DNA of 64,000 nucleotides. Origin: Candidatus Woesebacteria bacterium GW2011_GWF1_31_35 (GTDB taxonomy: Bacteria; Patescibacteriota; Microgenomatia; UBA8517). A program made the translations under genes and the position numbers. Of the stretch, positions 16,943 through 36,650 are shown one piece after another (the first letter of the stretch is position 1; the number at the start of each line of letters is the position of its first letter). Below the pieces are notes generated by a model. It saw only the letters and a program-made list of their open reading frames with translations. It did not search any database and was not told the origin of the DNA. The stretch is taken from contig CP011214.1 of the NCBI GenBank assembly GCA_001029755.1, positions 557,767-621,766 of the forward strand, read 5' to 3'.

Positions 16943-17533
16943 ATGAAAAAAGGTTTTACATTAGTTGAGCTCTTGATTGTTATTGGACTTCTTGGAGCAA
17001 TTGCCTTAATTGTTATTTCTGCAATTAACCCTATTGAACAAGCCAATCGTGCAAGAGATACTAGATTTAAAGCTGATGGTGGACAACTTATTTCAGCAAT
17101 AGATAGATACTTTGTTGGAGCAAGTGCATTTCCTTGGATGACGGTAGATCCTGCAATTGAAACAGATGACGCATATCCTTTCATTACTGCCAGTACTCAA
17201 GGAGTTGGACTTTGTGGCGCAACTTGTGCCGCTGATGGTCTGCTTATAACTACTAATGAGTTAAAGACTGAATTTAGAAATAGAGACTTTCTTGATACTG
17301 GTACAACAGTGTCAGAACAAATTATGGTAGGAAAAGCTCTTGGTTCGTCAACATCTGTTTATGCATGTTTTGTTCCTTTATCAAAGTCAGTTAGAGAAAA
17401 GGCTTGTGCTGATGGAAAAGTATATACATTAGCTACAAGTGTAAGAACAGCAATAGCAGCAAATGATGCTAGTTGTGCTGCTGATAGTGCGACCTGGATT
17501 TCTGGGCCACAATACGTTTGTATGCCTGAATAA
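16943..17533 (+). CDS. Type IV pilin (candidate major pilin)
   Basis: Class III signal MKKGF|TLVELLIVIG (G-1, E+5). Cys-rich C-terminal domain. Sits between pilC and pilD; strong RBS GGGGGTGA. Confidence 0.8.
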   Translation: MKKGFTLVELLIVIGLLGAIALIVISAINPIEQANRARDTRFKADGGQLISAIDRYFVGASAFPWMTVDPAIETDDAYPFITASTQGVGLCGATCAADGLLITTNELKTEFRNRDFLDTGTTVSEQIMVGKALGSSTSVYACFVPLSKSVREKACADGKVYTLATSVRTAIAANDASCAADSATWISGPQYVCMPE

Positions 17534-17544
17534 ATTGTAAGATT

Positions 17545-18231
17545 ATGTGGATTTTAATCCCGCTTGCATTGTTTGGGTTATTAATAGGATCTTTTATAGG
17601 AGCAGTCAGTTATAGATTGCCTAAGAATTTGAGATTTATAAAAGGCAGGTCTTTTTGTGATACTTGCAAGAAGGACTTGCGGTGGTTCGACAACATACCT
17701 GCCTTTTCCTATTTAGTTTTGGGTGGAAAATCATCTTGTTGTGGAAAGAAGATTTCAATTCGTTACCCATTAATAGAGATTGCTTCTGGAATAGGAACTG
17801 TTCTAATATTTTTTTGGTCTCAAAACCTTATATTTTGTTTACTATTTTTCATTTTACTTACAATTTTTGTGATTGACTTGGAAAATCAAATAATTCCTGA
17901 TGAATTAAGTTTTTTAGTTTTATTAAGTGGTATTCTCTACTCTTTTTCATTTGAAAAAATATTTGTAGGTTTTTTCCTTTCTTTTTTGATACTTTTACTT
18001 TATTTATTAACTAAAGGCAAAGGTATGGGTTTAGGAGATGTTAAGTTAACAATTGGTTTGGGAGTCTGGTTAAATTTTTCTAAAGGATTTACATTTTTAT
18101 TATTATCTTTCTTGACAGGAGGTGTAATTGCTTTCATACTTTTACTTATAGGTAAAGCTAAGTTAAAAACAAAACTTGCCTTTGGTCCGTTTTTGATAAT
18201 TGGTTTTTTAATAACCCTATTGTTTTTGTAA
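17545..18231 (+). CDS. pilD: Prepilin peptidase (A24 family) PilD
   Basis: N-terminal CDTC...CCGKKISIRYPLIEI zinc-binding tetracysteine. Polytopic membrane protein with the GLGDVKL aspartyl-protease motif. Confidence 0.85.
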   Translation: MWILIPLALFGLLIGSFIGAVSYRLPKNLRFIKGRSFCDTCKKDLRWFDNIPAFSYLVLGGKSSCCGKKISIRYPLIEIASGIGTVLIFFWSQNLIFCLLFFILLTIFVIDLENQIIPDELSFLVLLSGILYSFSFEKIFVGFFLSFLILLLYLLTKGKGMGLGDVKLTIGLGVWLNFSKGFTFLLLSFLTGGVIAFILLLIGKAKLKTKLAFGPFLIIGFLITLLFL

Positions 18232-18245
18232 CAAAGTTTATATAA

Positions 18246-18860
18246 ATGAAAGACAAAAGTTTTGAAAAGATTTTAAAAAGTAAATCTTCTCAGGGTATGA
18301 CCCTGATTGAACTTCTAGTTGTTGTTTCAATTATTTCTATCTTAGTTTTTGTAATTACTGTTTTTCTTCGACCACAAATTTTTAAGGCGAATGATGCAAG
18401 ACGCAAGGCTGAACTTAAAAGAATTGGTGTTGCAGCTGAAGAATATGAAAAGGATAATAATTGTTACCCCCCAACCAGTTTGGTAACTTGTGTCAATGGT
18501 GGTATAGGACTGCGCCCTTATATTGATGTTATCCCCTGTGATCCTGTAACCAAAAATTCTTATTTTTATGAACCTGATCCTAATAATGTTGCCTGTCCAA
18601 AATGGTATCGAATTTATGCCAGTCTACAAAATCAAACTGATGTTGATTATATCCCAAACATTGGACCAAGCTCTGCATATAGCTTTATCTATACTAGTCC
18701 TAATGCTCCTGCATTACCTACATCAATTCCCAATGTGAATATATATTATGGCTGCATTAATGGATCTTGTAGACAACTTATCGAGGGTGAAGAATGTACC
18801 CCTAACTGGGATTCAATGGATAATTGCAACTCACGTTGCCCTGAAAATCCATGCATATAA
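18246..18860 (+). CDS. Type IV pilin-like protein
   Basis: SSQG|MTLIELLVVVSIISIL prepilin motif, then ANDARRKAELKRI; Cys-rich C-terminus. Confidence 0.7.
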   Translation: MKDKSFEKILKSKSSQGMTLIELLVVVSIISILVFVITVFLRPQIFKANDARRKAELKRIGVAAEEYEKDNNCYPPTSLVTCVNGGIGLRPYIDVIPCDPVTKNSYFYEPDPNNVACPKWYRIYASLQNQTDVDYIPNIGPSSAYSFIYTSPNAPALPTSIPNVNIYYGCINGSCRQLIEGEECTPNWDSMDNCNSRCPENPCI

Positions 18861-19345
18861 TGAAATTTTTTACTAAAAAGGAAAAAAAAATAATTTTATT
18901 AATTTTAGTTTGTCTATTTACAATTGTTGGTATAAATATGAAGGTCTCTTTAAGAAGAGGTAGGGATAATACTAGAAAAAATGATTTATCCGTATTACAA
19001 AAAGCTCTTGATATATTCATAAGTAAATATCAAATGTTTCCTCCATCAGTTGATGGAAAAATCGAAGGTTGTTTTGGGCCAGATACTAAAGTAGATCCAA
19101 AAACAGGAAAATTAATTAATTTACATGTTTGTGAATGGGGAAAAGACGTTTTTGAAAATATTCAAACACTTCCAAAAGATCCAAATTATAAAAAAGGAGC
19201 AAGTTATCTTTATTTATCAGATACTAAAAAGTATCAAATTTATATTTCTTTAGAAGGTAAGGATGAGGCAGAATATACACCAGCGATAATTAATAAAAAT
19301 TTGCAATGTGGCACTAAAATATGTAATTATGGAAGGGAGTACTAA
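18851..19345 (+). CDS. Pilin-domain-like membrane protein lacking a canonical prepilin cleavage motif
   Basis: N-terminal TM helix (IILLILVCLFTIVGINM) without G-1/E+5. Downstream RGRDNTRKNDLSVLQKALDIF..YQMFP resembles the pilin alphaN region RGRDAQRKSDL...YGKYP of the neighbouring pilin. Confidence 0.45.
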   Translation: MHIMKFFTKKEKKIILLILVCLFTIVGINMKVSLRRGRDNTRKNDLSVLQKALDIFISKYQMFPPSVDGKIEGCFGPDTKVDPKTGKLINLHVCEWGKDVFENIQTLPKDPNYKKGASYLYLSDTKKYQIYISLEGKDEAEYTPAIINKNLQCGTKICNYGREY

Positions 19346-19346
19346 T

Positions 19347-19847
19347 ATGAAGAAAGCTTTTACACTTGTTGAACTTTTAGTAGTTATGGCCATAATCGGA
19401 GTACTTGCAGCCTTAGCCGTGGGAAGTTTTAGAACTGCACAAATGAGAGGAAGAGATGCTCAAAGAAAATCAGATTTAAAACAAATTTCCAATTCTTTAG
19501 AACTTTTCTATGCTGATTATGGAAAATATCCTAGTGATGTAACTGGGAGAATTGCAGGTTGTCCATATAATCCAGCTCTTTCAACAGGCACTTCGTGTAC
19601 TTGGGGAATTAGTGAATTTTCAGACAGTAAAACAGTTTATTTTAAAATTCTTCCAATTGATCCAACATCCCCCACGACAGAATATATATATGGATTAGTT
19701 AATAGTTCAAATCAAAAATATAGATTATTTGCAAGACTTGAAAATCCTAAAGATCAAAATATTGATTCTTCAATAACTGTTATTTGTGGTTCAGGGAAAT
19801 TGTGTAATTTTGCTGTAACTAGTGCAAATACTAGTGTGAGCGAGTAG
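19347..19847 (+). CDS. Type IV pilin
   Basis: MKKAF|TLVELLVVMAIIGVLA...RGRDAQRKSDL. ATG at 19347 is preceded by GGAAGGGAG; the tracker's upstream start at 19308 is less likely. Confidence 0.75.
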   Translation: MKKAFTLVELLVVMAIIGVLAALAVGSFRTAQMRGRDAQRKSDLKQISNSLELFYADYGKYPSDVTGRIAGCPYNPALSTGTSCTWGISEFSDSKTVYFKILPIDPTSPTTEYIYGLVNSSNQKYRLFARLENPKDQNIDSSITVICGSGKLCNFAVTSANTSVSE

Positions 19848-19875
19848 TTAAAATTTAGTATATAGTATATATGGT

Positions 19876-20337
19876 ATGAAAAAGTTAAAAGGTTTTACTT
19901 TAGTTGAACTTTTGGTAGTAATTTCCCTAATAGGAGTTTTAGCTACATTAATTTTTGCAAATCTAAATGCAGCCAGAGAAAGAGCAAGAGATGCAGTGAG
20001 AAAATCAGATTTAAGAAACATCCAAACTGCCTTGCGTCTTTACTATAATGATAATGCTGGATATCCTAGTAATAGTGGTTATAACATTGTTGGTTGTGGA
20101 AGTGGTGCCAGCCCTATAAGTTGTGTATATGGTGAAGCTTGGACAAGGGATGTTACTTATATGAATATTCTTCCTGATGATCCATTATCTTCTCAAGGAT
20201 ACTCATATCTTGGAGTTGCTGGAAATGAAAGTTATACTTTAAGTGCTTGCCTTGAAAATAAAAGTGATGAGAAAGGAGAATCAACAACTAATCTTACTTG
20301 GTGTCCAAGTGGTTGGAAGTATGTAGTTAAGCCATGA
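19876..20337 (+). CDS. Type IV pilin
   Basis: MKKLKGF|TLVELLVVISLIGVLA...ARERARDAVRKSDL. Confidence 0.75.
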   Translation: MKKLKGFTLVELLVVISLIGVLATLIFANLNAARERARDAVRKSDLRNIQTALRLYYNDNAGYPSNSGYNIVGCGSGASPISCVYGEAWTRDVTYMNILPDDPLSSQGYSYLGVAGNESYTLSACLENKSDEKGESTTNLTWCPSGWKYVVKP

Positions 20338-20831
20338 TGAAATTAAATTTAAAGGTTATTAAAAAAGGATTCACATTAATTGAAATGCTTGTTGTTATTT
20401 CTCTTATTGGAATTCTTGCAGCTTTATCTTTAGTTTCTTTTACTTCTGTACAAAAACAAGCAAGAGATACTGTTAGAAAATCAGATCTAAAACAATATCA
20501 AAATGCTCTAGAAGCTTATGCTAATTTAGTGTCTGGTCTATTTCCCTCTCGAACAGCAGTTTCTTCTGCTTATTCTACACTCTGTGGTGATTTAAATCTA
20601 AAATTAGAACCAGATATATCCTGTTCCCAAGATCCAAAAACAATAAACGATGCTACTTATTATGATTATAAATATATTTCAAATGGAACGAATGGAACAG
20701 CTACTGCAACAAAATATGTTTTGTGGGGGAAGATTGAAAATTCATCTACTACTAAATATATTATTTATTGTAGTGACGGTAAAATTGGAGAAAGTGCCAC
20801 CGCACCTAGTACATCAACTTGTCCAATATGA
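20334..20831 (+). CDS. Type IV pilin
   Basis: KKGF|TLIEMLVVISLIGILAA...KQARDTVRKSDL. Confidence 0.75.
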   Translation: MMKLNLKVIKKGFTLIEMLVVISLIGILAALSLVSFTSVQKQARDTVRKSDLKQYQNALEAYANLVSGLFPSRTAVSSAYSTLCGDLNLKLEPDISCSQDPKTINDATYYDYKYISNGTNGTATATKYVLWGKIENSSTTKYIIYCSDGKIGESATAPSTSTCPI

Positions 20832-21289
20832 TAATTAAAAATAATAAAAGAATAGTAAATGATGCATTTACTTTAATTGAGCTTTTGGTAGTTATATCTA
20901 TAATAGGAATTTTGGTAGCTGTTTCTGTCTTTGGTTTGGCTGGAGCAAGAGAGTCAAGTCGTGATGCAAGAAGAAAAGCGGATTTAGAGTTAATTAGATC
21001 AGGACTTGAACTTTATGAAGCAGATTGTAATGCTTATCCTGCAACAGCTAAGATTGTCTCAGGATCTGCACTTAAAGGTAGTCCTCCACCAACTATATGC
21101 TCAGCAAGTAATACTTATATCTCAGCTGTACCTGCTGATCCGATTACTGGTAGATCTTATCGATATGCAACTACGGCAAGCGGTTATGAAATATGTGCCT
21201 CGCTTGAACAAAGTGGTTTATCAGCGATTACTTGTGGAGGATCTTCTAATTGTGGAACATCATGCAATTACAAAGTTACAAATCCTTAA
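20819..21289 (+). CDS. Type IV pilin-like protein
   Basis: NDAF|TLIELLVVISIIGILVA...ARESSRDARRKADL (Ala at -1). Confidence 0.7.
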   Translation: MSNMIIKNNKRIVNDAFTLIELLVVISIIGILVAVSVFGLAGARESSRDARRKADLELIRSGLELYEADCNAYPATAKIVSGSALKGSPPPTICSASNTYISAVPADPITGRSYRYATTASGYEICASLEQSGLSAITCGGSSNCGTSCNYKVTNP

Positions 21290-21759
21290 AAGAAGGCTAC
21301 ACTTTAATTGAATTATTAGTAGGAATTACAATAATTTCAATTGTTTTTACTATTGGCTATGCTGGTTTTAGAGAGTTTTCTAGAAGACAAGCTTTAGGTG
21401 GAGTTACTAAGGCTATTAAAGCTGATTTAAGACTTACTCAACAACTTGCTTCAACTGGTCAAAAACCAACAACAGGAACATGCACACAATTAAGTAGTTA
21501 TAGATTTTATATTTATTCTGCAACATCAACATATAAAATTTATGCAAATTGTTCTAATCCAGCTTCCACTAATATACTTGTAAAAACGGTTTCTTTGGAC
21601 AGTGATATTTCTATTACTCTCCCCCCTACTCCAGTTTATATTTTGTTTAAAGTTTTGGGTCAAGGAACTAATCTAACAAGTGATTATGTTATTGAACTAG
21701 ATCATACATCAGGAGATTCTTCGACAGTAACTGTTGGAACAGGGGGAGAAATAAATTGA
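21250..21759 (+). CDS. Minor pilin-like protein (GspH/FimT-like)
   Basis: KEGY|TLIELLVGITIISIVF...IKADLRLTQQLA. Confidence 0.6.
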   Translation: MWNIMQLQSYKSLKEGYTLIELLVGITIISIVFTIGYAGFREFSRRQALGGVTKAIKADLRLTQQLASTGQKPTTGTCTQLSSYRFYIYSATSTYKIYANCSNPASTNILVKTVSLDSDISITLPPTPVYILFKVLGQGTNLTSDYVIELDHTSGDSSTVTVGTGGEIN

Positions 21760-22223
21760 AAAACAAAAAATATCTTTTAAAAGGACAATCAATGTTTGAA
21801 GTTGTTGTAGCTATTTTTATCATGGCTTTAATTATTGTTGGTGTAATAATTTTATCTACAAATTCAATTTCCAATTCCTCTTTTTCAAAAAATAAGACAC
21901 TAGCAGGAAGATATGCTCAAGAAGCTATTGAATGGTTAAGAAGTCAAAGAGATGCAGACATGACAATATTTACAGGAAGAGTATCAGCAGTTCCTTATTG
22001 TTTGACAGACATTTCTCTGGCTAATCCATGGTCTAATATTGGAACATGCACATCTACAGAAGTTATTCCTGAAACCAGTTTTAGAAGAGAAGCTAGTCTT
22101 AGTACTAGTCAGATTAGTTTGAAAAATGTTATAGAAGCTACTGTTGTAGTTTATTGGAGCGATTCAAAAGGATCTCACGAAGTAAGATCAGTTACAAATT
22201 TTACAGATATACGTGAGAAGTAA
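21756..22223 (+). CDS. Minor pilin-like protein (PilV-like)
   Basis: KGQS MFEVVVAIFIMALIIVGVIIL (E+5 relative to G). Small, no Cys pair. Confidence 0.5.
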   Translation: MKNKKYLLKGQSMFEVVVAIFIMALIIVGVIILSTNSISNSSFSKNKTLAGRYAQEAIEWLRSQRDADMTIFTGRVSAVPYCLTDISLANPWSNIGTCTSTEVIPETSFRREASLSTSQISLKNVIEATVVVYWSDSKGSHEVRSVTNFTDIREK

Positions 22224-22725
22224 AATTAATTTAATACAAATGAAAAAAAATAAAGGGTTTTCTCTCATTGAAATTTTAATTGTTATTTCAATTTTTTCAG
22301 TTGTTGGAATACTTTCAACAAGAGCAATTTTACTTACAATGAGGGGTGCTAAAAAAAGTGATTCACAAGTAAGAGTTAGGGAAAACGTAAATTATGCTCT
22401 CTCAGTAATTGAAAGACAAATTAGAAGTTCTGAAAGTGTGACTTGTACTGCAAGTACTACAATTTTAAATTATGTTTCTCTTGAGGGTACATCAGCTACT
22501 TTTTCGTGTGTTACGGCAGGGACTGATAAATACATTGCTTCAGGATCAGCACGACTTACATCAGGTGATATTGTAATTACATCTTGTTCATTTGATTGTA
22601 CACAGGTAGATCAAAATAAACCTCCAATTGTAAAAGTAAGTATAGTTGCTGAAGATGCAACAACAACTTCAATTGAGAAAGGATCAGTAACCGCAGAAAC
22701 TGAAATAGTTACAAGAAATTATTAA
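22213..22725 (+). CDS. Minor pilin-like protein (PilW-like)
   Basis: NKGF|SLIEILIVISIFSVVGIL, consistent with a class III signal. Confidence 0.6.
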   Translation: MRSKINLIQMKKNKGFSLIEILIVISIFSVVGILSTRAILLTMRGAKKSDSQVRVRENVNYALSVIERQIRSSESVTCTASTTILNYVSLEGTSATFSCVTAGTDKYIASGSARLTSGDIVITSCSFDCTQVDQNKPPIVKVSIVAEDATTTSIEKGSVTAETEIVTRNY

Positions 22726-30000: not shown

Positions 30001-31008
30001 ATGGTTGGAATAGACATTGGATCAAAAAGTATAAAAATAGTAGAGCTAGTAGGATCAGTTGGAAAATTCCAACTAAAATCCTCAGGTGCTGTGGGTTACA
30101 CTGGTCTTTCCCCTGATAAAATGACTGAAGAGAAAGATTTTGTAGCACTTTCTTTGATTTTAAAAAAGATTATTAAACAAATTGGAATTACTTCAAAGGA
30201 AGTTAATATTGCCCTACCTGAGCCATTAGTCTTTACAAGAGTTATTAAGTTTCCCCTACTTTCAGATGAGGAGGTTAACTCTGCTATTAAATGGGAAGCT
30301 GAACAATATATTCCAATTCCAATTAATGAAGCAATTATTCAGTACTCGATACTATCGAAAAATGAGACTACTGCTTCAACTTCAGTACTTTTAGTCGCAG
30401 CTCCAAAAGTAGTTGTTGAAAAATATGTTAAGATTGTCCGTTTAGCAGGTTTAACTCCAGTTTCAGCTGAAACTGAGTTAACTGCTCTCGCTCGAAGTAT
30501 TTCACCTGAGAAAGGCGTATCACTATTATTAGATTTAGGGGCATCATCTGTGGATATGGCAATAACCAGAGATTCAAAAGTAATTTTTACAAGGTCAATT
30601 CCTGTAGCAGGTGAAACATTTACTAGAGCAGTTTCACAGTCTTTAGGAATTAATATGCAACAAGCAGAAGAATACAAAAAGACATATGGTCTTTCAGGAA
30701 CACAACTTGAAGGAAAAGTAAAAATTGCGCTAGAACCAATATTTAAAATGGTTACAGATGAAATTAAAAAAGCAATTCATTTTTTTCAAAGTGAAGAAAA
30801 AGAAGAAGCACCCACAACAATTATTATTTCAGGAGGATCATCTTTAACTCCAGAGTTAGTATCTTACTTAACCGAAGTACTAGGTCTTGAAACAGTCTCG
30901 GGCAATCCATTTAATAAAGTTGCAGTTGACCCTGAAACCTCCAAAAGTCTTGCCCCTTATATTTCTATTTATGGGACAGCAGTTGGTTTAGCAATGTTAG
31001 AAGGGTAA
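30001..31008 (+). CDS. pilM: Type IV pilus assembly protein PilM (actin-like ATPase fold)
   Basis: MVGIDIGSKSIKIVEL...LLDLGASSVDMAITRDSKVIFTRSIPVAG...IIISGGSS. Confidence 0.85.
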   Translation: MVGIDIGSKSIKIVELVGSVGKFQLKSSGAVGYTGLSPDKMTEEKDFVALSLILKKIIKQIGITSKEVNIALPEPLVFTRVIKFPLLSDEEVNSAIKWEAEQYIPIPINEAIIQYSILSKNETTASTSVLLVAAPKVVVEKYVKIVRLAGLTPVSAETELTALARSISPEKGVSLLLDLGASSVDMAITRDSKVIFTRSIPVAGETFTRAVSQSLGINMQQAEEYKKTYGLSGTQLEGKVKIALEPIFKMVTDEIKKAIHFFQSEEKEEAPTTIIISGGSSLTPELVSYLTEVLGLETVSGNPFNKVAVDPETSKSLAPYISIYGTAVGLAMLEG

Positions 31009-31020
31009 TTTTTTATTTAT

Positions 31021-31563
31021 ATGCTTGCTAGAAAAATAAATTTAATACCAACAGAAATGGCAGTTCCTGCCGGATCTTTAAAATTTGTAAAAGTTCTAAA
31101 TAAATTATCTATTTTAGGAGTTATATCTTTAATTCTTTTAACTATTTCTGCAATCACCTTATTTGTATTTTATTCGATTGAATTGAAAAAAGTAAATAGT
31201 TCGGTAGCGTCTTTAAAAAATGAAATATCATCACTTGAAAAAAGTGAGCAAAAATTAATTTTAGTAAAAGATAAACTTGGGAAAATTGCATATGTTAAAT
31301 CACTTGATTCTGCAGAAAATGAAATTAATCGGTTTAAAAAAATAAATGAAATAGTATCAGTTTCTTCTGATTCTGCATTTACTGAAGTTAGTATTGGATC
31401 GTCTAAAACTGAAGTATCTTTAATTTCTGGAAATTCTACTTCGTTAACTTCCATACTTGAATCCGTAGCTAATTTAAAAGATTATGGAAAAATAATTTTA
31501 TCCTCACTTGGATTTAATCCAACGTCAGGATTTTTAACAAGCTTTATTTTTAATAGTAAATAA
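31021..31563 (+). CDS. pilN: PilN-like bitopic pilus assembly protein
   Basis: Single TM helix then coiled coil. Position immediately after pilM. Confidence 0.5.
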   Translation: MLARKINLIPTEMAVPAGSLKFVKVLNKLSILGVISLILLTISAITLFVFYSIELKKVNSSVASLKNEISSLEKSEQKLILVKDKLGKIAYVKSLDSAENEINRFKKINEIVSVSSDSAFTEVSIGSSKTEVSLISGNSTSLTSILESVANLKDYGKIILSSLGFNPTSGFLTSFIFNSK

Positions 31564-31566
31564 TAT

Positions 31567-32286
31567 ATGGATAAAATAAACCCAGAAATAAATAAGTTTG
31601 TTATAGGAGATACATCTAAATTTATTTCGCAAGAATCAAAATTTATGATTAAACCTTTGGCAATTTTTGTAATTGTAATAGCTTTACTTGTCGGCTCGGT
31701 GTATTTTGGATTCGGACAAATTAATTCTATCAAAACAAAATTAACTGAAAGCAAAAAAAATCAAAAATTGTTAGCTACAAAGGTAAGTATTTTGCAAAAT
31801 GTTACAAAAGTAATACCAATAGATCTTACATCTATTGATTTTGCACTTCCCGAAAAAGGAATTGCAATTTATGGGATGAGTCAAGTTAAATCTCAAGCAG
31901 GAGCATTGGGTTTAATTATTTCAAACTTAAGAACTGGAAGCGTAATTCAAGAAAAAGATGGAGTCTCAAAAGCCACAATCTCATTTGATGTAGAAGGAAA
32001 TGAACAAGCAATCTATGATTATTTAGGTTTATTTTCTAAATTATTACCTTTAATGAAGGTAGATAAGGTTAGCATTAGTAAGTTAGATGGTGTGGTAAAA
32101 GCATCTACTACAATTAGTGTTTTTTCAGGAGAACTTCCTAAAAGAATCCCATCTATAACATCTCCAGTTACTGATTTAACAAATGATGAATTATTAACCT
32201 TAAAAGAAATTTCTACGTTTTCACCTCCCCAATTTGTCATACCAGCTCCATTTAGTGATATCGCCAAAGAAGATCCTTTTAATTAA
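31567..32286 (+). CDS. pilO: PilO-like bitopic pilus assembly protein
   Basis: N-terminal TM (LAIFVIVIALLVGSVYFGF), coiled coil, C-terminal alpha/beta domain. Follows pilM-pilN. Confidence 0.45.
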   Translation: MDKINPEINKFVIGDTSKFISQESKFMIKPLAIFVIVIALLVGSVYFGFGQINSIKTKLTESKKNQKLLATKVSILQNVTKVIPIDLTSIDFALPEKGIAIYGMSQVKSQAGALGLIISNLRTGSVIQEKDGVSKATISFDVEGNEQAIYDYLGLFSKLLPLMKVDKVSISKLDGVVKASTTISVFSGELPKRIPSITSPVTDLTNDELLTLKEISTFSPPQFVIPAPFSDIAKEDPFN

Positions 32287-34050: not shown

Positions 34051-34157
34051 ATAATTAATGATTTTAATACAAAAATTCAAAAATTAAAATAACCAATTTG
34101 AAAAGAAGATTGTCAATTATTAAGAATTCTTGACACTGGATATATAATGGTTGAAAG

Positions 34158-35549
34158 ATGTCTTCCGAATATGAACCAGAAATAAAAGAACTTCTTTTTT
34201 CTGATAAATACGTTTTAAAATCCGGAGTTTTATTGGTCGAAGGTTATAATAATTGTGCATTATATGATATAAATTCTGGGAATGTTTACTCGTTAAATAA
34301 TAGTGCTAGGAATATCTTAACTGGTAAAACAGACAATTCATTCTTTTGGGAAAAATTAAGAGATATGAATTTGTGTACAACCAATACTGACAAAGAAAAG
34401 TCCATGTTGAATGAGTTGACGTATGTACCAAGTTTGCAATTTGCGTGGTTTGAAATAGTATCAAAAGCTTGTAACGAGAATTGTCTTCATTGTTATGGAG
34501 ATTTTATGCCACCAACCTATAGAAAAGGATTGGATAAATTTCATTCTTTTGACAATTCAAATTTAAAAAAGGAGGAAAAATTAAGTTTTGTACAATGGAA
34601 AAGTCAAATAAAAAATGTTCACGATTTAGGTTGCGAAACTTGTCAATTTATAGGTGACGAGCCGTTCTTGTATAGAGGAGAAAAAGGAGAATCTGTTTTA
34701 GATCTTGCCGAATATGCAAAAGAAATAGGTTTTAAATTTATTGAAATATTTACAAACGGAACTTTACTTACTCGAGAAATGATTAATCGAATAAAAGACT
34801 TGGGAGTTAATATTGCAATTTCTCTTTATTCAATTGAACCTGAGATACACGATAGAATTACCAGAACAAGAGGAAGCCATAAAAAAACAATGGAAGCACT
34901 AGAAATGCTTAAGGAAGCAAGTATTCCAACAAGAGTTGAAACTGTTCTAATGAAACAAAATGAGACTAGTGCCGAAGAAACTCAAAGATTTATAGACAAA
35001 ATGGGATTTTCTCATAAACGACTTGATGTATTAAGGCAAAACGGTAGAGGGGATAATCTTAATCTACTGCCGAGTAACGATTCACTTTTAAAACATGGTG
35101 TCATGGCTTCTCCAAATTTTAGTATTAATAAAGATATGTTGGCTCGAAATTTATCAAACAATAGTTGTTTGTCTGGAAAGATTGCAATAACTGATAATGG
35201 AGATGTCTTACCCTGCGTATTCTCTAGAGATCAGATAGTTGGAAATGTTTTAGAAAAATCACTGGCTGAAATAGTTGATGGCAATAGACTAATAAAAGTT
35301 TGGCAAAATACAAAAGATTGTGTGCAAGTCTGTAAGGACTGTGAGTATCGATATTGCTGTACCGATTGTAGACCTTCTTCTCTTGGAACAAATCAAAATG
35401 TAGGAGAATATTTAACCGCTCCATATCCAAAATGTGCTTATAACCCATATGAAGGTAAATGGGGAAAAGGATACTGGAAATTAGATCTTGAACATAAACC
35501 AATTTATATTAATATATTGGAAGGGGGTGAAGAAATAAATGAAAGCTGA
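34158..35549 (+). CDS. Radical SAM peptide-modifying enzyme with an N-terminal PqqD-like RRE and a C-terminal SPASM domain (RiPP maturase-like)
   Basis: Residues ~15-75 (YVLKSGVLLVEGYNNCALYDINSGNVYSLNNSARNILTGKTD) match a PqqD/RRE fold. Cx3Cx2C radical SAM cluster is CNENCLHC. C-terminal Cys-rich SPASM (C..C...C, CKDCEYRYCCTDC). Confidence 0.85.
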   Translation: MSSEYEPEIKELLFSDKYVLKSGVLLVEGYNNCALYDINSGNVYSLNNSARNILTGKTDNSFFWEKLRDMNLCTTNTDKEKSMLNELTYVPSLQFAWFEIVSKACNENCLHCYGDFMPPTYRKGLDKFHSFDNSNLKKEEKLSFVQWKSQIKNVHDLGCETCQFIGDEPFLYRGEKGESVLDLAEYAKEIGFKFIEIFTNGTLLTREMINRIKDLGVNIAISLYSIEPEIHDRITRTRGSHKKTMEALEMLKEASIPTRVETVLMKQNETSAEETQRFIDKMGFSHKRLDVLRQNGRGDNLNLLPSNDSLLKHGVMASPNFSINKDMLARNLSNNSCLSGKIAITDNGDVLPCVFSRDQIVGNVLEKSLAEIVDGNRLIKVWQNTKDCVQVCKDCEYRYCCTDCRPSSLGTNQNVGEYLTAPYPKCAYNPYEGKWGKGYWKLDLEHKPIYINILEGGEEINES

Positions 35550-35778
35550 ACTTAACTTAGAACCAGAAATTGTTTTGGTTACACCGGCAAAAGTAGGTGG
35601 TTGTCCGCCAAATGATTGCCCGCCGAATGCGGCTTGCAGACCAAATACGGATTGTTATCCCAACAATTGTCGACCAGCATTGGGGCCATGTGGTCCGGAT
35701 ACACTGCCTTGCTATCCAAATGGTAAAGCACCGGAGCCACCAAGACCATTTCCAAGACCACCTTGTTATCCTGGTTAA
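35539..35778 (+). CDS. Cys/Pro-rich precursor-like peptide (79 aa) with eight Cys-X-Pro repeats; candidate RiPP substrate
   Basis: Leader-like MKAELNLEPEIVLVTPAKVGG, then CPPNDCPPNAACRPNTDCYPNNCRPALGPCGPDTLPCYPNG....PPCYPG. Start overlaps the rSAM stop by 11 nt. SD-like AAGGGGGTGA sits 8 nt upstream. Locally GC-rich with CCG Pro codons that are atypical for the rest of the window. Confidence 0.6.
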   Translation: MKAELNLEPEIVLVTPAKVGGCPPNDCPPNAACRPNTDCYPNNCRPALGPCGPDTLPCYPNGKAPEPPRPFPRPPCYPG

Positions 35779-36650
35779 GTGAGTCTTAGGGGTTTAATAA
35801 GAATACTCACCCAGTTTTTTAGAGATTGGGTAAGTAGTGTCTTTCCTGCAACTAGAGCATAATCATGTGGGTTTATATTGGCTTCAAGAGATGAATCTTG
35901 CACATTAAGATCTTTGATTTTTTCCTCTAAAATCATTTTTTCTATTCGAGGAATTGCAAACTTATCAAAGTATTTAATATGTTCTGGCCAAAAAATTTTA
36001 CTGGCTGAGTATTCTGTACAAAATGCAAATATTTCAGAGGCAAATCTTGGATTTGGGAAAATAATATTAGTTTTGGTTGATATATTATCTTTTATGTAAT
36101 AACTTTTCGCAGTTTTTAGAAAACTAAGATTTTCTTTTTTATCTGAAGGCCACCAAAGTTTATAACTATCCCAATAAACATGTCCAAACTCATGCAAAAT
36201 AGTTGCATAATAACTTTCTTTTGTAAAATATGGATCTTTGGTTATTTTATAATATTTTTTATGTATCTCTGTAAACGGAGTTAATAATCCCCCACATGGT
36301 CCATTGATTACTTTTTTTGTATTTTTCTTTAAAAGATTTTTTATATCTTTAATATAAATTCCTGAACGCCATCCTATTTGATCAAGATCTATTATTTTAT
36401 TAATATTATGTGGTAATTTATATAAATTATAACTGCGATTTTTTATCGAAATTTTTTCTAAGTTTAAATTTTTGTCAAAGGTCCAAAGGTAAACATATTT
36501 TGAGTCAAAACTAATTACTGGAATATTTTCTATTCTTTCTTTATATTTAAAAACATAATTTAGTTTTGGGTTCCAAAGAATATCTAGTGCCTTTTCAATT
36601 GCAAGCAAATCTTCTCTTCTAGCAATATAGTTTTCAAACATATAAGTCAA
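35775..36650 (-). CDS. HExxH-motif protein (putative zinc metallopeptidase)
   Basis: YATILHEFGHVYWD contains HEXXH, with a Glu ~45 aa downstream (gluzincin-like spacing). Convergent with the precursor peptide gene; stop codons overlap. Confidence 0.4.
   Translation of the reverse strand: MTYMFENYIARREDLLAIEKALDILWNPKLNYVFKYKERIENIPVISFDSKYVYLWTFDKNLNLEKISIKNRSYNLYKLPHNINKIIDLDQIGWRSGIYIKDIKNLLKKNTKKVINGPCGGLLTPFTEIHKKYYKITKDPYFTKESYYATILHEFGHVYWDSYKLWWPSDKKENLSFLKTAKSYYIKDNISTKTNIIFPNPRFASEIFAFCTEYSASKIFWPEHIKYFDKFAIPRIEKMILEEKIKDLNVQDSSLEANINPHDYALVAGKTLLTQSLKNWVSILIKPLRLT

Follow-up and report, generated by a model that had tools for sequence, protein, structure and literature searches.

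Much new peptide chemistry originates from radical S-adenosylmethionine (SAM)/SPASM enzymes. Among the described systems, the closest to the locus presented here are those of the sactipeptides and ranthipeptides (AlbA, SkfB, StsB, CteB/SCIFF, PapB/freyrasin, and NxxcB), in which a cysteine-rich leader-core peptide is likewise encoded beside a SPASM maturase carrying an N-terminal domain of the peptide-binding type. Our study concerns such a locus in Candidatus Woesebacteria bacterium GW2011_GWF1_31_35 (GCA_001029755.1), located in a stretch of 64,000 nucleotides of contig CP011214.1 (positions 557,767 to 621,766), which we call the window and whose own numbering is used throughout. A gene for a radical SAM/SPASM enzyme is followed there by an open reading frame for a short peptide with eight Cys-x-Pro (C-x-P) triads and, in convergent orientation, by a gene for a small HExxH protein. 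We conclude with good confidence that the peptide is the precursor of a peptide that is made ribosomally and modified after translation (RiPP), that the adjacent enzyme acts on it, and that both belong to a cassette with the HExxH protein, a gluzincin-like peptidase.

The comparison with the known systems reveals both likeness and difference. StsB, AlbA, and SkfB are among the best NCBIfam matches to the enzyme, and the peptide contains two N-x-x-C arrangements (NAAC and NTDC), as expected of the core of an NxxC-type ranthipeptide, together with one CxxxD; this single copy (CPPND) is all that resembles the repeated C-x3-D of freyrasin and PapB. However, the enzyme stays below the cutoffs of the sactipeptide maturases (StsB, 83.7 of 625 bits; AlbA, 58.9 of 850; SkfB, 43.7 of 300), no SCIFF maturase appears among its best 25 matches, and the peptide matches no NCBIfam family at E <= 0.1, SCIFF included. 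Moreover, the motif is defined here by C-x-P, present in up to 19 copies with no fixed acceptor, and the companion gene encodes a gluzincin-like peptidase. The grasp-with-SPASM maturase model (TIGR04193) is the best named model for the C-terminal SPASM half across the family (85-99 bits), but our enzyme reaches only 86.1 bits of a cutoff of 175, in its C-terminal half alone, and neither the surroundings of the cassette in the window nor the inspected loci contain a visible ATP-grasp gene. A published map of SPASM proteins describes TvgA, with TVGG repeats, paired with TvgB, as well as clusters 59 and 115 with Asp-Cys repeats (Kostenko et al. 2022, PMC9062424). These systems share with ours a short core repeat processed iteratively by one SPASM enzyme in a cluster of two or three genes, whereas here the unit is C-x-P, the enzyme lies outside those families, and the distribution is centred on the candidate phyla radiation; the map mentions nothing like C-x-P repeat precursors. 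Our search of the full-text literature found no description of C-x-P repeat radical SAM peptides, and it is important to consider that subscription-only journals lie outside this search, so that a prior description is possible. Apparently, then, this is a widespread family of modified peptides that has no family model and has not been described before.

A C-x-P repeat peptide coupled to a radical SAM/SPASM enzyme

The peptide is encoded at 35539..35778 of the forward strand, starts with ATG, and has 79 residues (translation, MKAELNLEPEIVLVTPAKVGGCPPNDCPPNAACRPNTDCYPNNCRPALGPCGPDTLPCYPNGKAPEPPRPFPRPPCYPG), including 8 Cys and 21 Pro. A reading of the window made from the sequence alone (hereafter the sequence-only reading) had pointed to eight Cys-x-Pro repeats at this position; the translation is exact, and all eight Cys indeed sit in C-x-P. 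In 200,000 composition-preserving shuffles, this arrangement arose by chance with a probability of about 1e-5 for the whole peptide and 2e-5 for the core, and the next-best of the 810 six-frame segments of the window holds three C-x-P triplets. The leader region (residues 1-21; 35539..35601) carries the conserved motif EPEIVLVTP at 35560-35586, with small residues (GG, GS, GA, or SG) preceding the first Cys. The core (residues 22-79; 35602..35778) comprises the eight C-x-P units up to the stop codon and ends in a Pro/Arg-rich tail, PPRPFPRPPCYPG, at 35737-35775. The peptide ATG lies 11 nt inside the radical SAM reading frame, whose stop codon occupies 35547-35549, which implies translational coupling of enzyme and peptide; just upstream of this ATG, within the 3' end of the enzyme gene, the purine run GGAAGGGGGTGAAG at 35519..35532 (+) reads as a Shine-Dalgarno-like element. 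The only deposit of the exact peptide sequence is 'hypothetical protein A2422_01200' from Candidatus Woesebacteria bacterium RIFOXYC1_FULL_31_51, and the public annotation of the enzyme is also that of a hypothetical protein from this organism.

The enzyme (463 residues; 34158..35549, forward strand) matches PF04055 with 84.7 bits (cutoff 29.5) and the SPASM family PF13186 with 35.7 bits (cutoff 21.5). Its radical SAM cluster motif CX3CX2C (C105, C109, and C112; 34470..34493, +) is invariant in 18 homologues. Seven SPASM cysteines follow at 35166..35435 (+), namely C337, C353, C392, C395, C401, C404, and C426, of which six are invariant in our alignment of enzyme homologues (A2) and C426 is present in at least 90% of them; the patterns G348-x4-C353 and C392-x2-C395-x5-C401-x2-C404 are seen directly in the sequence. 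The N-terminus of such enzymes is the usual place of the leader-binding element, and residues ~9-70 (34182..34367, +) are predicted to form three beta-strands followed by helices: the AlphaFold2 (AF2) model places strands at 24-28, 33-37, and 42-46 and helices at 48-54 and 61-69, with pLDDT values of 75-90, and G23, G29, D37, and S45 are invariant in alignment A2. We take this domain to be a putative leader-binding domain resembling the RiPP recognition element, an assignment made from predicted topology only, as the enzyme has no Pfam PqqD match. No NCBIfam model reaches its cutoff for the enzyme; the top matches are partial ones to the heme enzymes AhbD and NirJ2, through the radical SAM core, and the best-scoring named models include those of the peptide maturases SPASM_w_grasp, StsB, AlbA, SkfB, and mycofactocin. 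SkfB is also the top structural neighbour. A sequence search of the PDB with the SPASM half, intended for placing the cluster ligands on anSME and CteB, returned chance matches only, and a profile search returned remote radical SAM cores only. The leader-dependent architecture and the seven SPASM cysteines together point to a peptide maturase and, more weakly, to thioether formation.

Conservation of the peptide gene

Homologous peptides found by BLASTP form seven clusters with 65-85% identity. The sequence-only reading had made its case depend on whether relatives keep the small open reading frame and its phase, and they do: the frame is maintained in eight orthologous genes, every insertion or deletion comprises whole codons, and the ratio of non-synonymous to synonymous divergence (dN/dS) lies between 0.10 and 0.44 in 23 of the 25 computable pairs, the remaining two being 0.63 and 0.10. 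The peptide gene is thus coding and under purifying selection.

Invariant positions in the eight orthologues are distributed over the entire peptide. In the leader they are P9, L13, V14, and T15; in the core, the 8 Cys, every Pro at +2, and N30, N36, N43, A47, and D54; and at the C-terminus, P67-P68-R69-P70...R73-P74-x-C76-x-P78-G79, so that the tail is invariant as well. In the wider subfamily, the conserved core reads CxPN(V/A)xCxPNTxCxP(F/N)NCxPA(L/M)xPCxP(D/E). Both N30/C33 and N36/C39 are invariant in the orthologues, and the corresponding NVxC and NTxC are retained in the wider subfamily. Conservation of Cys and of Pro(+2) extends to the whole family, whereas that of the Asn/Asp positions is confined to the subfamily. 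The invariant Pro/Arg-rich tail of the subfamily (PPRPFPRPP) might be a separate targeting or bioactive module. Tails of the PPxPPxP type end many Microgenomates family peptides (e.g., PPGPPKPN and PPPKPPRPS), and a superficial likeness to the motifs of proline-rich antimicrobial peptides can also be seen.

When 1.84 billion representatives were searched with a profile of the orthologue alignment, only 18 matches were obtained, from which it follows that the peptide family is too divergent for a single hidden Markov model. One of the 18, P0179 (802 residues), was discarded as a low-complexity false positive. A database protein of 228 residues, P0190, joins the N-terminal half of a radical SAM enzyme to a C-x-P core and represents either a frameshifted or chimeric assembly or another form of fusion.

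Linkage of enzyme and peptide across phyla

Homologues of the enzyme number 474 at E <= 1e-3; among the 120 matches listed, the named ones are Patescibacteria with 47-62% identity, save for a few close relatives. Scanning one genome per GTDB species with the enzyme alignment gave 158 confirmed loci, 79 of which were fetched and scanned (these loci carry handles beginning with L). In these loci, found with the enzyme alone, C-x-P-rich segments were sought blindly. In most loci they occur directly 3' of the enzyme gene or, in some lineages, 5' of it, with 2-19 units per peptide. Within 700 nt of the enzyme, segments with at least four C-x-P units have a density of 0.52 per kb, compared with 0.012 per kb in the rest of these loci, a 44-fold enrichment over the 79 loci, and 24 of the 27 loci whose enzymes are at least 45% identical contain one; loci below the threshold of four still have peptides with two units. 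The family includes Woese-, Roizman-, Ames-, Levy-, and Curtissbacteria, WWE3, Dojkabacteria, Chloroflexota, Deltaproteobacteria, Latescibacterota, Bacillota, and Actinobacteria, as well as the archaeal Methanothrix/Methanosarcinales, Bathyarchaeia, and Thermoproteota; some metagenome-assembled genome records bear labels, perhaps unreliable ones, such as 'Saccharibacteria' or 'Gammaproteobacteria'. Enzyme and C-x-P peptide are therefore linked across phyla. Together with the conserved open reading frame and its phase, this linkage sustains the proposal of the sequence-only reading that the peptide is of the precursor type and is coupled to the radical SAM/SPASM enzyme beside it.

The form of the substrate and the layout of the locus vary between lineages. 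First, C-x-P arrays are fused to the C-terminus of the enzyme in two actinobacteria, Streptomyces celluloflavus (L072:3959-5035) and Sphaerimonospora cavernae (L079:1886-3025), and in one archaeal contig (L040). Second, in Deltaproteobacteria (L037:5272-5790 and L078), the repeats lie inside a 172-residue protein that starts out with a Tat-type signal (SRRGFIK) and carries PG_binding_1 as its C-terminal domain (Pfam, 1e-13 in L037), which suggests that C-x-P modification is also used on an exported, cell-wall-binding protein. Third, in Archaea, C-x-P proteins of 127-170 residues with a helical C-terminal tail are encoded upstream of the enzyme. Fourth, in Bacillota (L041:5535-6650 and L043:5611-7357), one or two GNAT acetyltransferase genes come after the pair, joined in L043 by a gene for an ABC-transporter ATPase; neither locus has a detectable gluzincin homologue, and this layout of the pair with GNAT and ABC-transporter genes is typical of a RiPP cluster. 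Two or three different C-x-P precursors can also surround one enzyme (L020:3373-5750 and L035:3913-4210).

Across 53 family peptides, 325 of 345 Cys lie in C-x-P, a figure biased upward because the peptides were chosen for the motif; the remaining Cys are mostly in leaders. Residues at +1 vary freely (S, N, R, A, G, P, and others), those at +3 are D in 0.19 of the units, N in 0.12, T in 0.10, C in 0.09, and S in 0.09, and N or D occurs at -3 in 16%. Spacing between successive Cys is mostly 3-7, with a minimum of 3 (28 cases), as in CxPCxPCxP. A leader motif of the P-[ET]-I-x-L-V-T type is present in 37 of the 53 leaders and mostly precedes the first core Cys by 6-12 residues. Ten diverse enzymes and peptides of the family match no Pfam or NCBIfam family above cutoff.

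These results also bear on whether the peptide is a substrate at all. It might instead be an unmodified Cys/Pro-rich peptide with a metal-binding or structural role, merely co-transcribed with an enzyme that acts elsewhere; short Cys-rich peptides can bind metals, and the Patescibacteria cassette has neither an exporter nor an immunity gene, both of which would agree with such a role. We consider it highly improbable, since enzyme and C-x-P peptide remain adjacent or fused across more than 10 phyla while their other neighbours change, the leader-like N-terminal motif is conserved, and the 11-nt overlap couples the two genes translationally.

A putative zinc peptidase and the three-gene cassette

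The third gene, at 35775..36650 on the reverse strand, encodes a 291-residue HExxH protein, a putative leader peptidase of the gluzincin type. It converges with the peptide gene, with which it shares 4 nt at the stop codons, and the same arrangement is found in L080 and L083. Its true start is probably the ATG at 36641 (MFENY...) and the listed TTG start wrong, because the homologue consensus begins with MFxNY. The zinc motif HEFGH lies at 36180-36194 (-), and H153, E154, H157, and E206 are invariant in 32 sequences, E206 being the presumed ligand downstream of HExxH. The AF2 model is confident (pLDDT 87.8) and predicts a gluzincin fold with a catalytic domain like that of thermolysin and M1 peptidases, although no Pfam or NCBIfam family matches above cutoff and only weak matches to DUF7844, MPTase-PolyVal, and WLM were obtained. 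Among RiPPs, class III lanthipeptides lose their leaders to enzymes of the M1 family. The Glu of M1 and thermolysin is found ~18-20 residues past the second His; here it is found 49 residues past it, in a small single-domain protein of about 280 residues that belongs to no Pfam or NCBIfam family and has sub-threshold zincin matches only.

The enzyme-peptide pair is adjoined by a homologue of this protein in four further contigs as well as in 21 of the 79 related loci. Only the closest relative shares the housekeeping neighbours present in the window (L32, NusB, RNase III, and RecG). As the peptidase homologue recurs while the housekeeping neighbours differ, maturase, precursor, and putative leader peptidase constitute an autonomous cassette, and this three-gene cassette recurs in Patescibacteria within unrelated neighbourhoods.

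Proposed maturation and candidate chemistries

In the maturation pathway that we propose, translation of the precursor would be coupled to that of the radical SAM/SPASM enzyme encoded upstream; its leader, through the strand-forming motif EPEIVLVTP, would dock on the N-terminal domain of the enzyme, which would then work iteratively on the eight C-x-P units of the core; and the convergent gluzincin-like zinc peptidase would remove the leader, probably near G20-G21/C22. Regarding the modification itself, we tentatively favour thioethers of the sactipeptide/ranthipeptide type, with each Cys sulfur joined to a nearby carbon and the Pro at +2 fixing a tight turn. Seven SPASM cysteines suggest an open site at auxiliary cluster I, as in the sactisynthase CteB, that would be able to bind a substrate thiolate, and this count weakly favours a thioether formed through such a site. 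Within the subfamily, the likely acceptors are the invariant Asn/Asp at +3 (CxPN and CxPD) or at -3 (NxxC): because the extended core is conserved there, these residues are plausible partners or contacts. The Asn/Asp acceptors named in the sequence-only reading (NxxC and CxPN) thus fit the subfamily, where N30, N36, N43, and D54 are invariant, but they are not general in the 53 family peptides. Since only Cys and Pro(+2) are required family-wide, a fixed Cys-to-Asn/Asp link is not universal.

Several points weigh against the pathway and the thioether reading. The chemistry is entirely inferred; there is no universal acceptor, and units may abut directly (CxPCxPCxP), with Cys and Pro(+2) as the only universal residues. 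The open-site argument draws on published structures of other enzymes, and the SPASM region of the AF2 model has a pLDDT < 50. Finally, the role of leader peptidase is assigned by position only, and the Patescibacteria cassette lacks an exporter.

We leave some room, at a clearly lower probability than we grant to thioethers, for the C-x-P triad being both the recognition and the reaction unit of an undescribed radical SAM chemistry, either an intramotif Cys-Pro or Cys-x link or an iterative oxidation at the Cys C-beta. As an alternative to the thioether reading, a reaction specific to the triad (an intramotif cross-link from Cys to Pro or from Cys to x, or a Pro-directed epimerisation or desaturation) would have short peptides as well as domains within larger secreted proteins as its targets. 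It would agree with the strict invariance of Cys and Pro(+2) and with the minimum spacing of 3, as in CSPCNPCRP, where every residue belongs to a triad. The placement of enzyme and peptides outside all Pfam and NCBIfam families, the lack of a description in the searched literature, and the occurrence of the module in the Tat-signal/PG_binding_1 protein, in the archaeal proteins of 127-170 residues, and in the enzyme fusions also speak for it. Nevertheless, we know of no precedent for triad-specific radical SAM chemistry, and the invariance of N30, N36, N43, A47, and D54, all outside the triads, suggests partners beyond them in the subfamily, so that this alternative seems rather unlikely to us.

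Special consideration was given to the anaerobic sulfatase-maturating enzymes (anSME), to which the sequence-only reading had related the C-x-P repeats. An oxidation of this kind would abstract a C-beta hydrogen from each C-x-P Cys and convert it to formylglycine or to a residue derived from a thioaldehyde, giving a peptide with many aldehydes or a further condensed product. The sulfatase motif C/S-x-P/A-x-R has C-x-P as its first half, the universality of Cys and Pro(+2) alone suits a reaction confined to Cys, and the C-x-P units of the Tat-signal protein of Deltaproteobacteria would parallel the maturation of sulfatases in the cytoplasm before export. Beyond the likeness of C-x-P, however, the proposed relationship finds no support. 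With TIGR03942, the enzyme scores 52.4 bits of a cutoff of 349.45, about 15th in rank and below more than a dozen other SPASM families. The residues at +4 over the eight copies are D, A, T, N, L, T, G, and none, so that Arg, as the same reading had correctly stated, is missing in 8 of 8. As substrate, a small peptide with a leader and many motifs takes the place of one site in a sulfatase, and the family has seven conserved SPASM cysteines and an N-terminal domain, whereas anSME have eight auxiliary-cluster cysteines and are not known to have a leader-binding domain. Nor do we know of any short peptide that carries eight or more reactive aldehydes. We therefore regard chemistry of the anSME type as improbable, and sacti/ranthipeptide-type thioethers remain our preferred, if tentative, reading.

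GC content, codon usage, and probable exchange of the peptide gene

The GC content of the core is 0.51-0.52, compared with 0.306 for the window. The composition of the peptide, combined with the codon usage of the window, already predicts 0.475, and the GC peak is thus mostly a matter of amino acid composition and not of constraint at the nucleotide level. A modest residual excess persists at third codon positions (0.27 in the peptide gene vs. 0.145 expected; p ~0.007), carried largely by CCG, which accounts for 6 of the 21 Pro codons of the peptide gene compared with 4.5% in 51 window genes (binomial p = 2.5e-4). The GC and codon anomaly reported in the sequence-only reading is consequently real, both in its peak and in its CCG excess, but its interpretation as nucleotide constraint is not supported, since composition explains most of the GC.

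The local GC peak and the excess of CCG would also be expected if the patch were a structured RNA or another element acting at the nucleotide level, instead of or besides coding. This possibility is now negligible. No Rfam match was obtained at E <= 1, and the fold has a z-score of -1.19, with 26 of 200 shuffles folding at least equally well, results on which an RNA element was rejected. Moreover, composition alone predicts 0.475 of the 0.52 GC, relatives show synonymous changes of Pro codons at the same sites, and dN/dS is well below 1. Two further explanations were discarded. Nucleotide constraint on Pro codons fails as a general explanation because relatives exchange CCG, CCA, and CCT at identical sites, and horizontal transfer of the whole cassette fails as the cause of the GC peak because the radical SAM and peptidase genes have an ordinary GC content (0.23-0.36), only the peptide gene being atypical.

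The share of CCG among Pro codons is similarly high in close peptide genes (window, 0.29; L001, 0.25; L015, 0.29; L080, 0.40; L081, 0.17; L082, 0.20) and is 0.04-0.13 in their flanking genes; no excess was found in more distant peptides of the family or in other genes of the hosts of the close peptides. CCG codons are, therefore, a trait of this lineage of peptide genes. Divergence at synonymous sites is 3-4 times lower in the peptide gene than in both flanking genes when the window (35539-35778) is compared with L015:5391-5642 and L081:3001-3252. The proportion of synonymous differences (pS) against L015 is 0.18 for the peptide, 0.75 for the radical SAM enzyme, and 0.76 for the peptidase, and against L081 it is 0.29, 0.74, and 0.68, respectively. 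In the nucleotide alignment, identity climbs at the start codon of the peptide and collapses directly past its stop codon. Compared with L083, on the other hand, the peptide has 71% amino acid identity and a synonymous divergence (dS) of 1.36, and the enzyme has 76% amino acid identity; L083 has the closer enzyme but the more distant peptide, so that the ranking of peptide similarity is incongruent with that of the enzyme.

These patterns have the look of a lateral exchange, or of a gene conversion, that involved the small gene only, and the simplest reading of the sequences would be that the precursor gene was swapped between cassettes of different Microgenomates lineages, carrying its own codon signature. 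A point against this reading is that the low synonymous divergence of the peptide could instead reflect constraint on synonymous sites in part of the clade; the comparisons with L080, L082, and L083 show no selection of this kind. The recent acquisition hinted at in the sequence-only reading is hence supported in part, for the peptide gene only, by its low synonymous divergence and its incongruence with the enzyme. A precursor that apparently moves independently of its enzyme is relevant to the evolution of RiPP clusters.

Other features of the window

A promoter-like candidate, TTAAGA-17-TATAAT, occurs at 34120..34148 (+), 10 nt upstream of the radical SAM start, in a region where such sites are not more frequent than expected from shuffled sequence. 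Genes for type IV pili are found near the cassette in the window, L080, and L081. In the window, the type IV pilus/pseudopilin set is located at 16950-22300 and 30001-32286 and includes a prepilin-peptidase-like membrane protein (17545-18231) and PilM/N/O-like genes (30001-32286); six open reading frames have pilin N-termini of the form G(F/M/Y)(T/S)L(I/V)E(L/M/I)L. A linkage of the cassette to these genes was considered and rejected, as only 6 of 45 Patescibacteria-type loci contain pilin-type N-termini.

Implications

The C-x-P family has hundreds of members and a very clean substrate signature, with no family model to describe it. The module is present in peptides with leaders, in a cell-wall-binding protein with a Tat signal, and in enzyme fusions, which offers a natural experiment that separates recognition from chemistry, and, with a short peptide and only two or three genes in the system, the chemistry is open to direct test. 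If the reaction does prove to be specific to the triad, it would define a new RiPP class and one of few peptide natural-product systems that are conserved in the Patescibacteria with their reduced genomes, and the same reaction would modify larger secreted or cell-wall-bound proteins (the Tat/PG-binding protein of Deltaproteobacteria, the archaeal proteins of 127-170 residues, and the enzyme-substrate fusions of Actinobacteria). Genomes of Patescibacteria measure about 1 Mb and hold very few specialised-metabolite genes, and a three-gene peptide cassette conserved in these organisms likely matters for their episymbiotic lifestyle.

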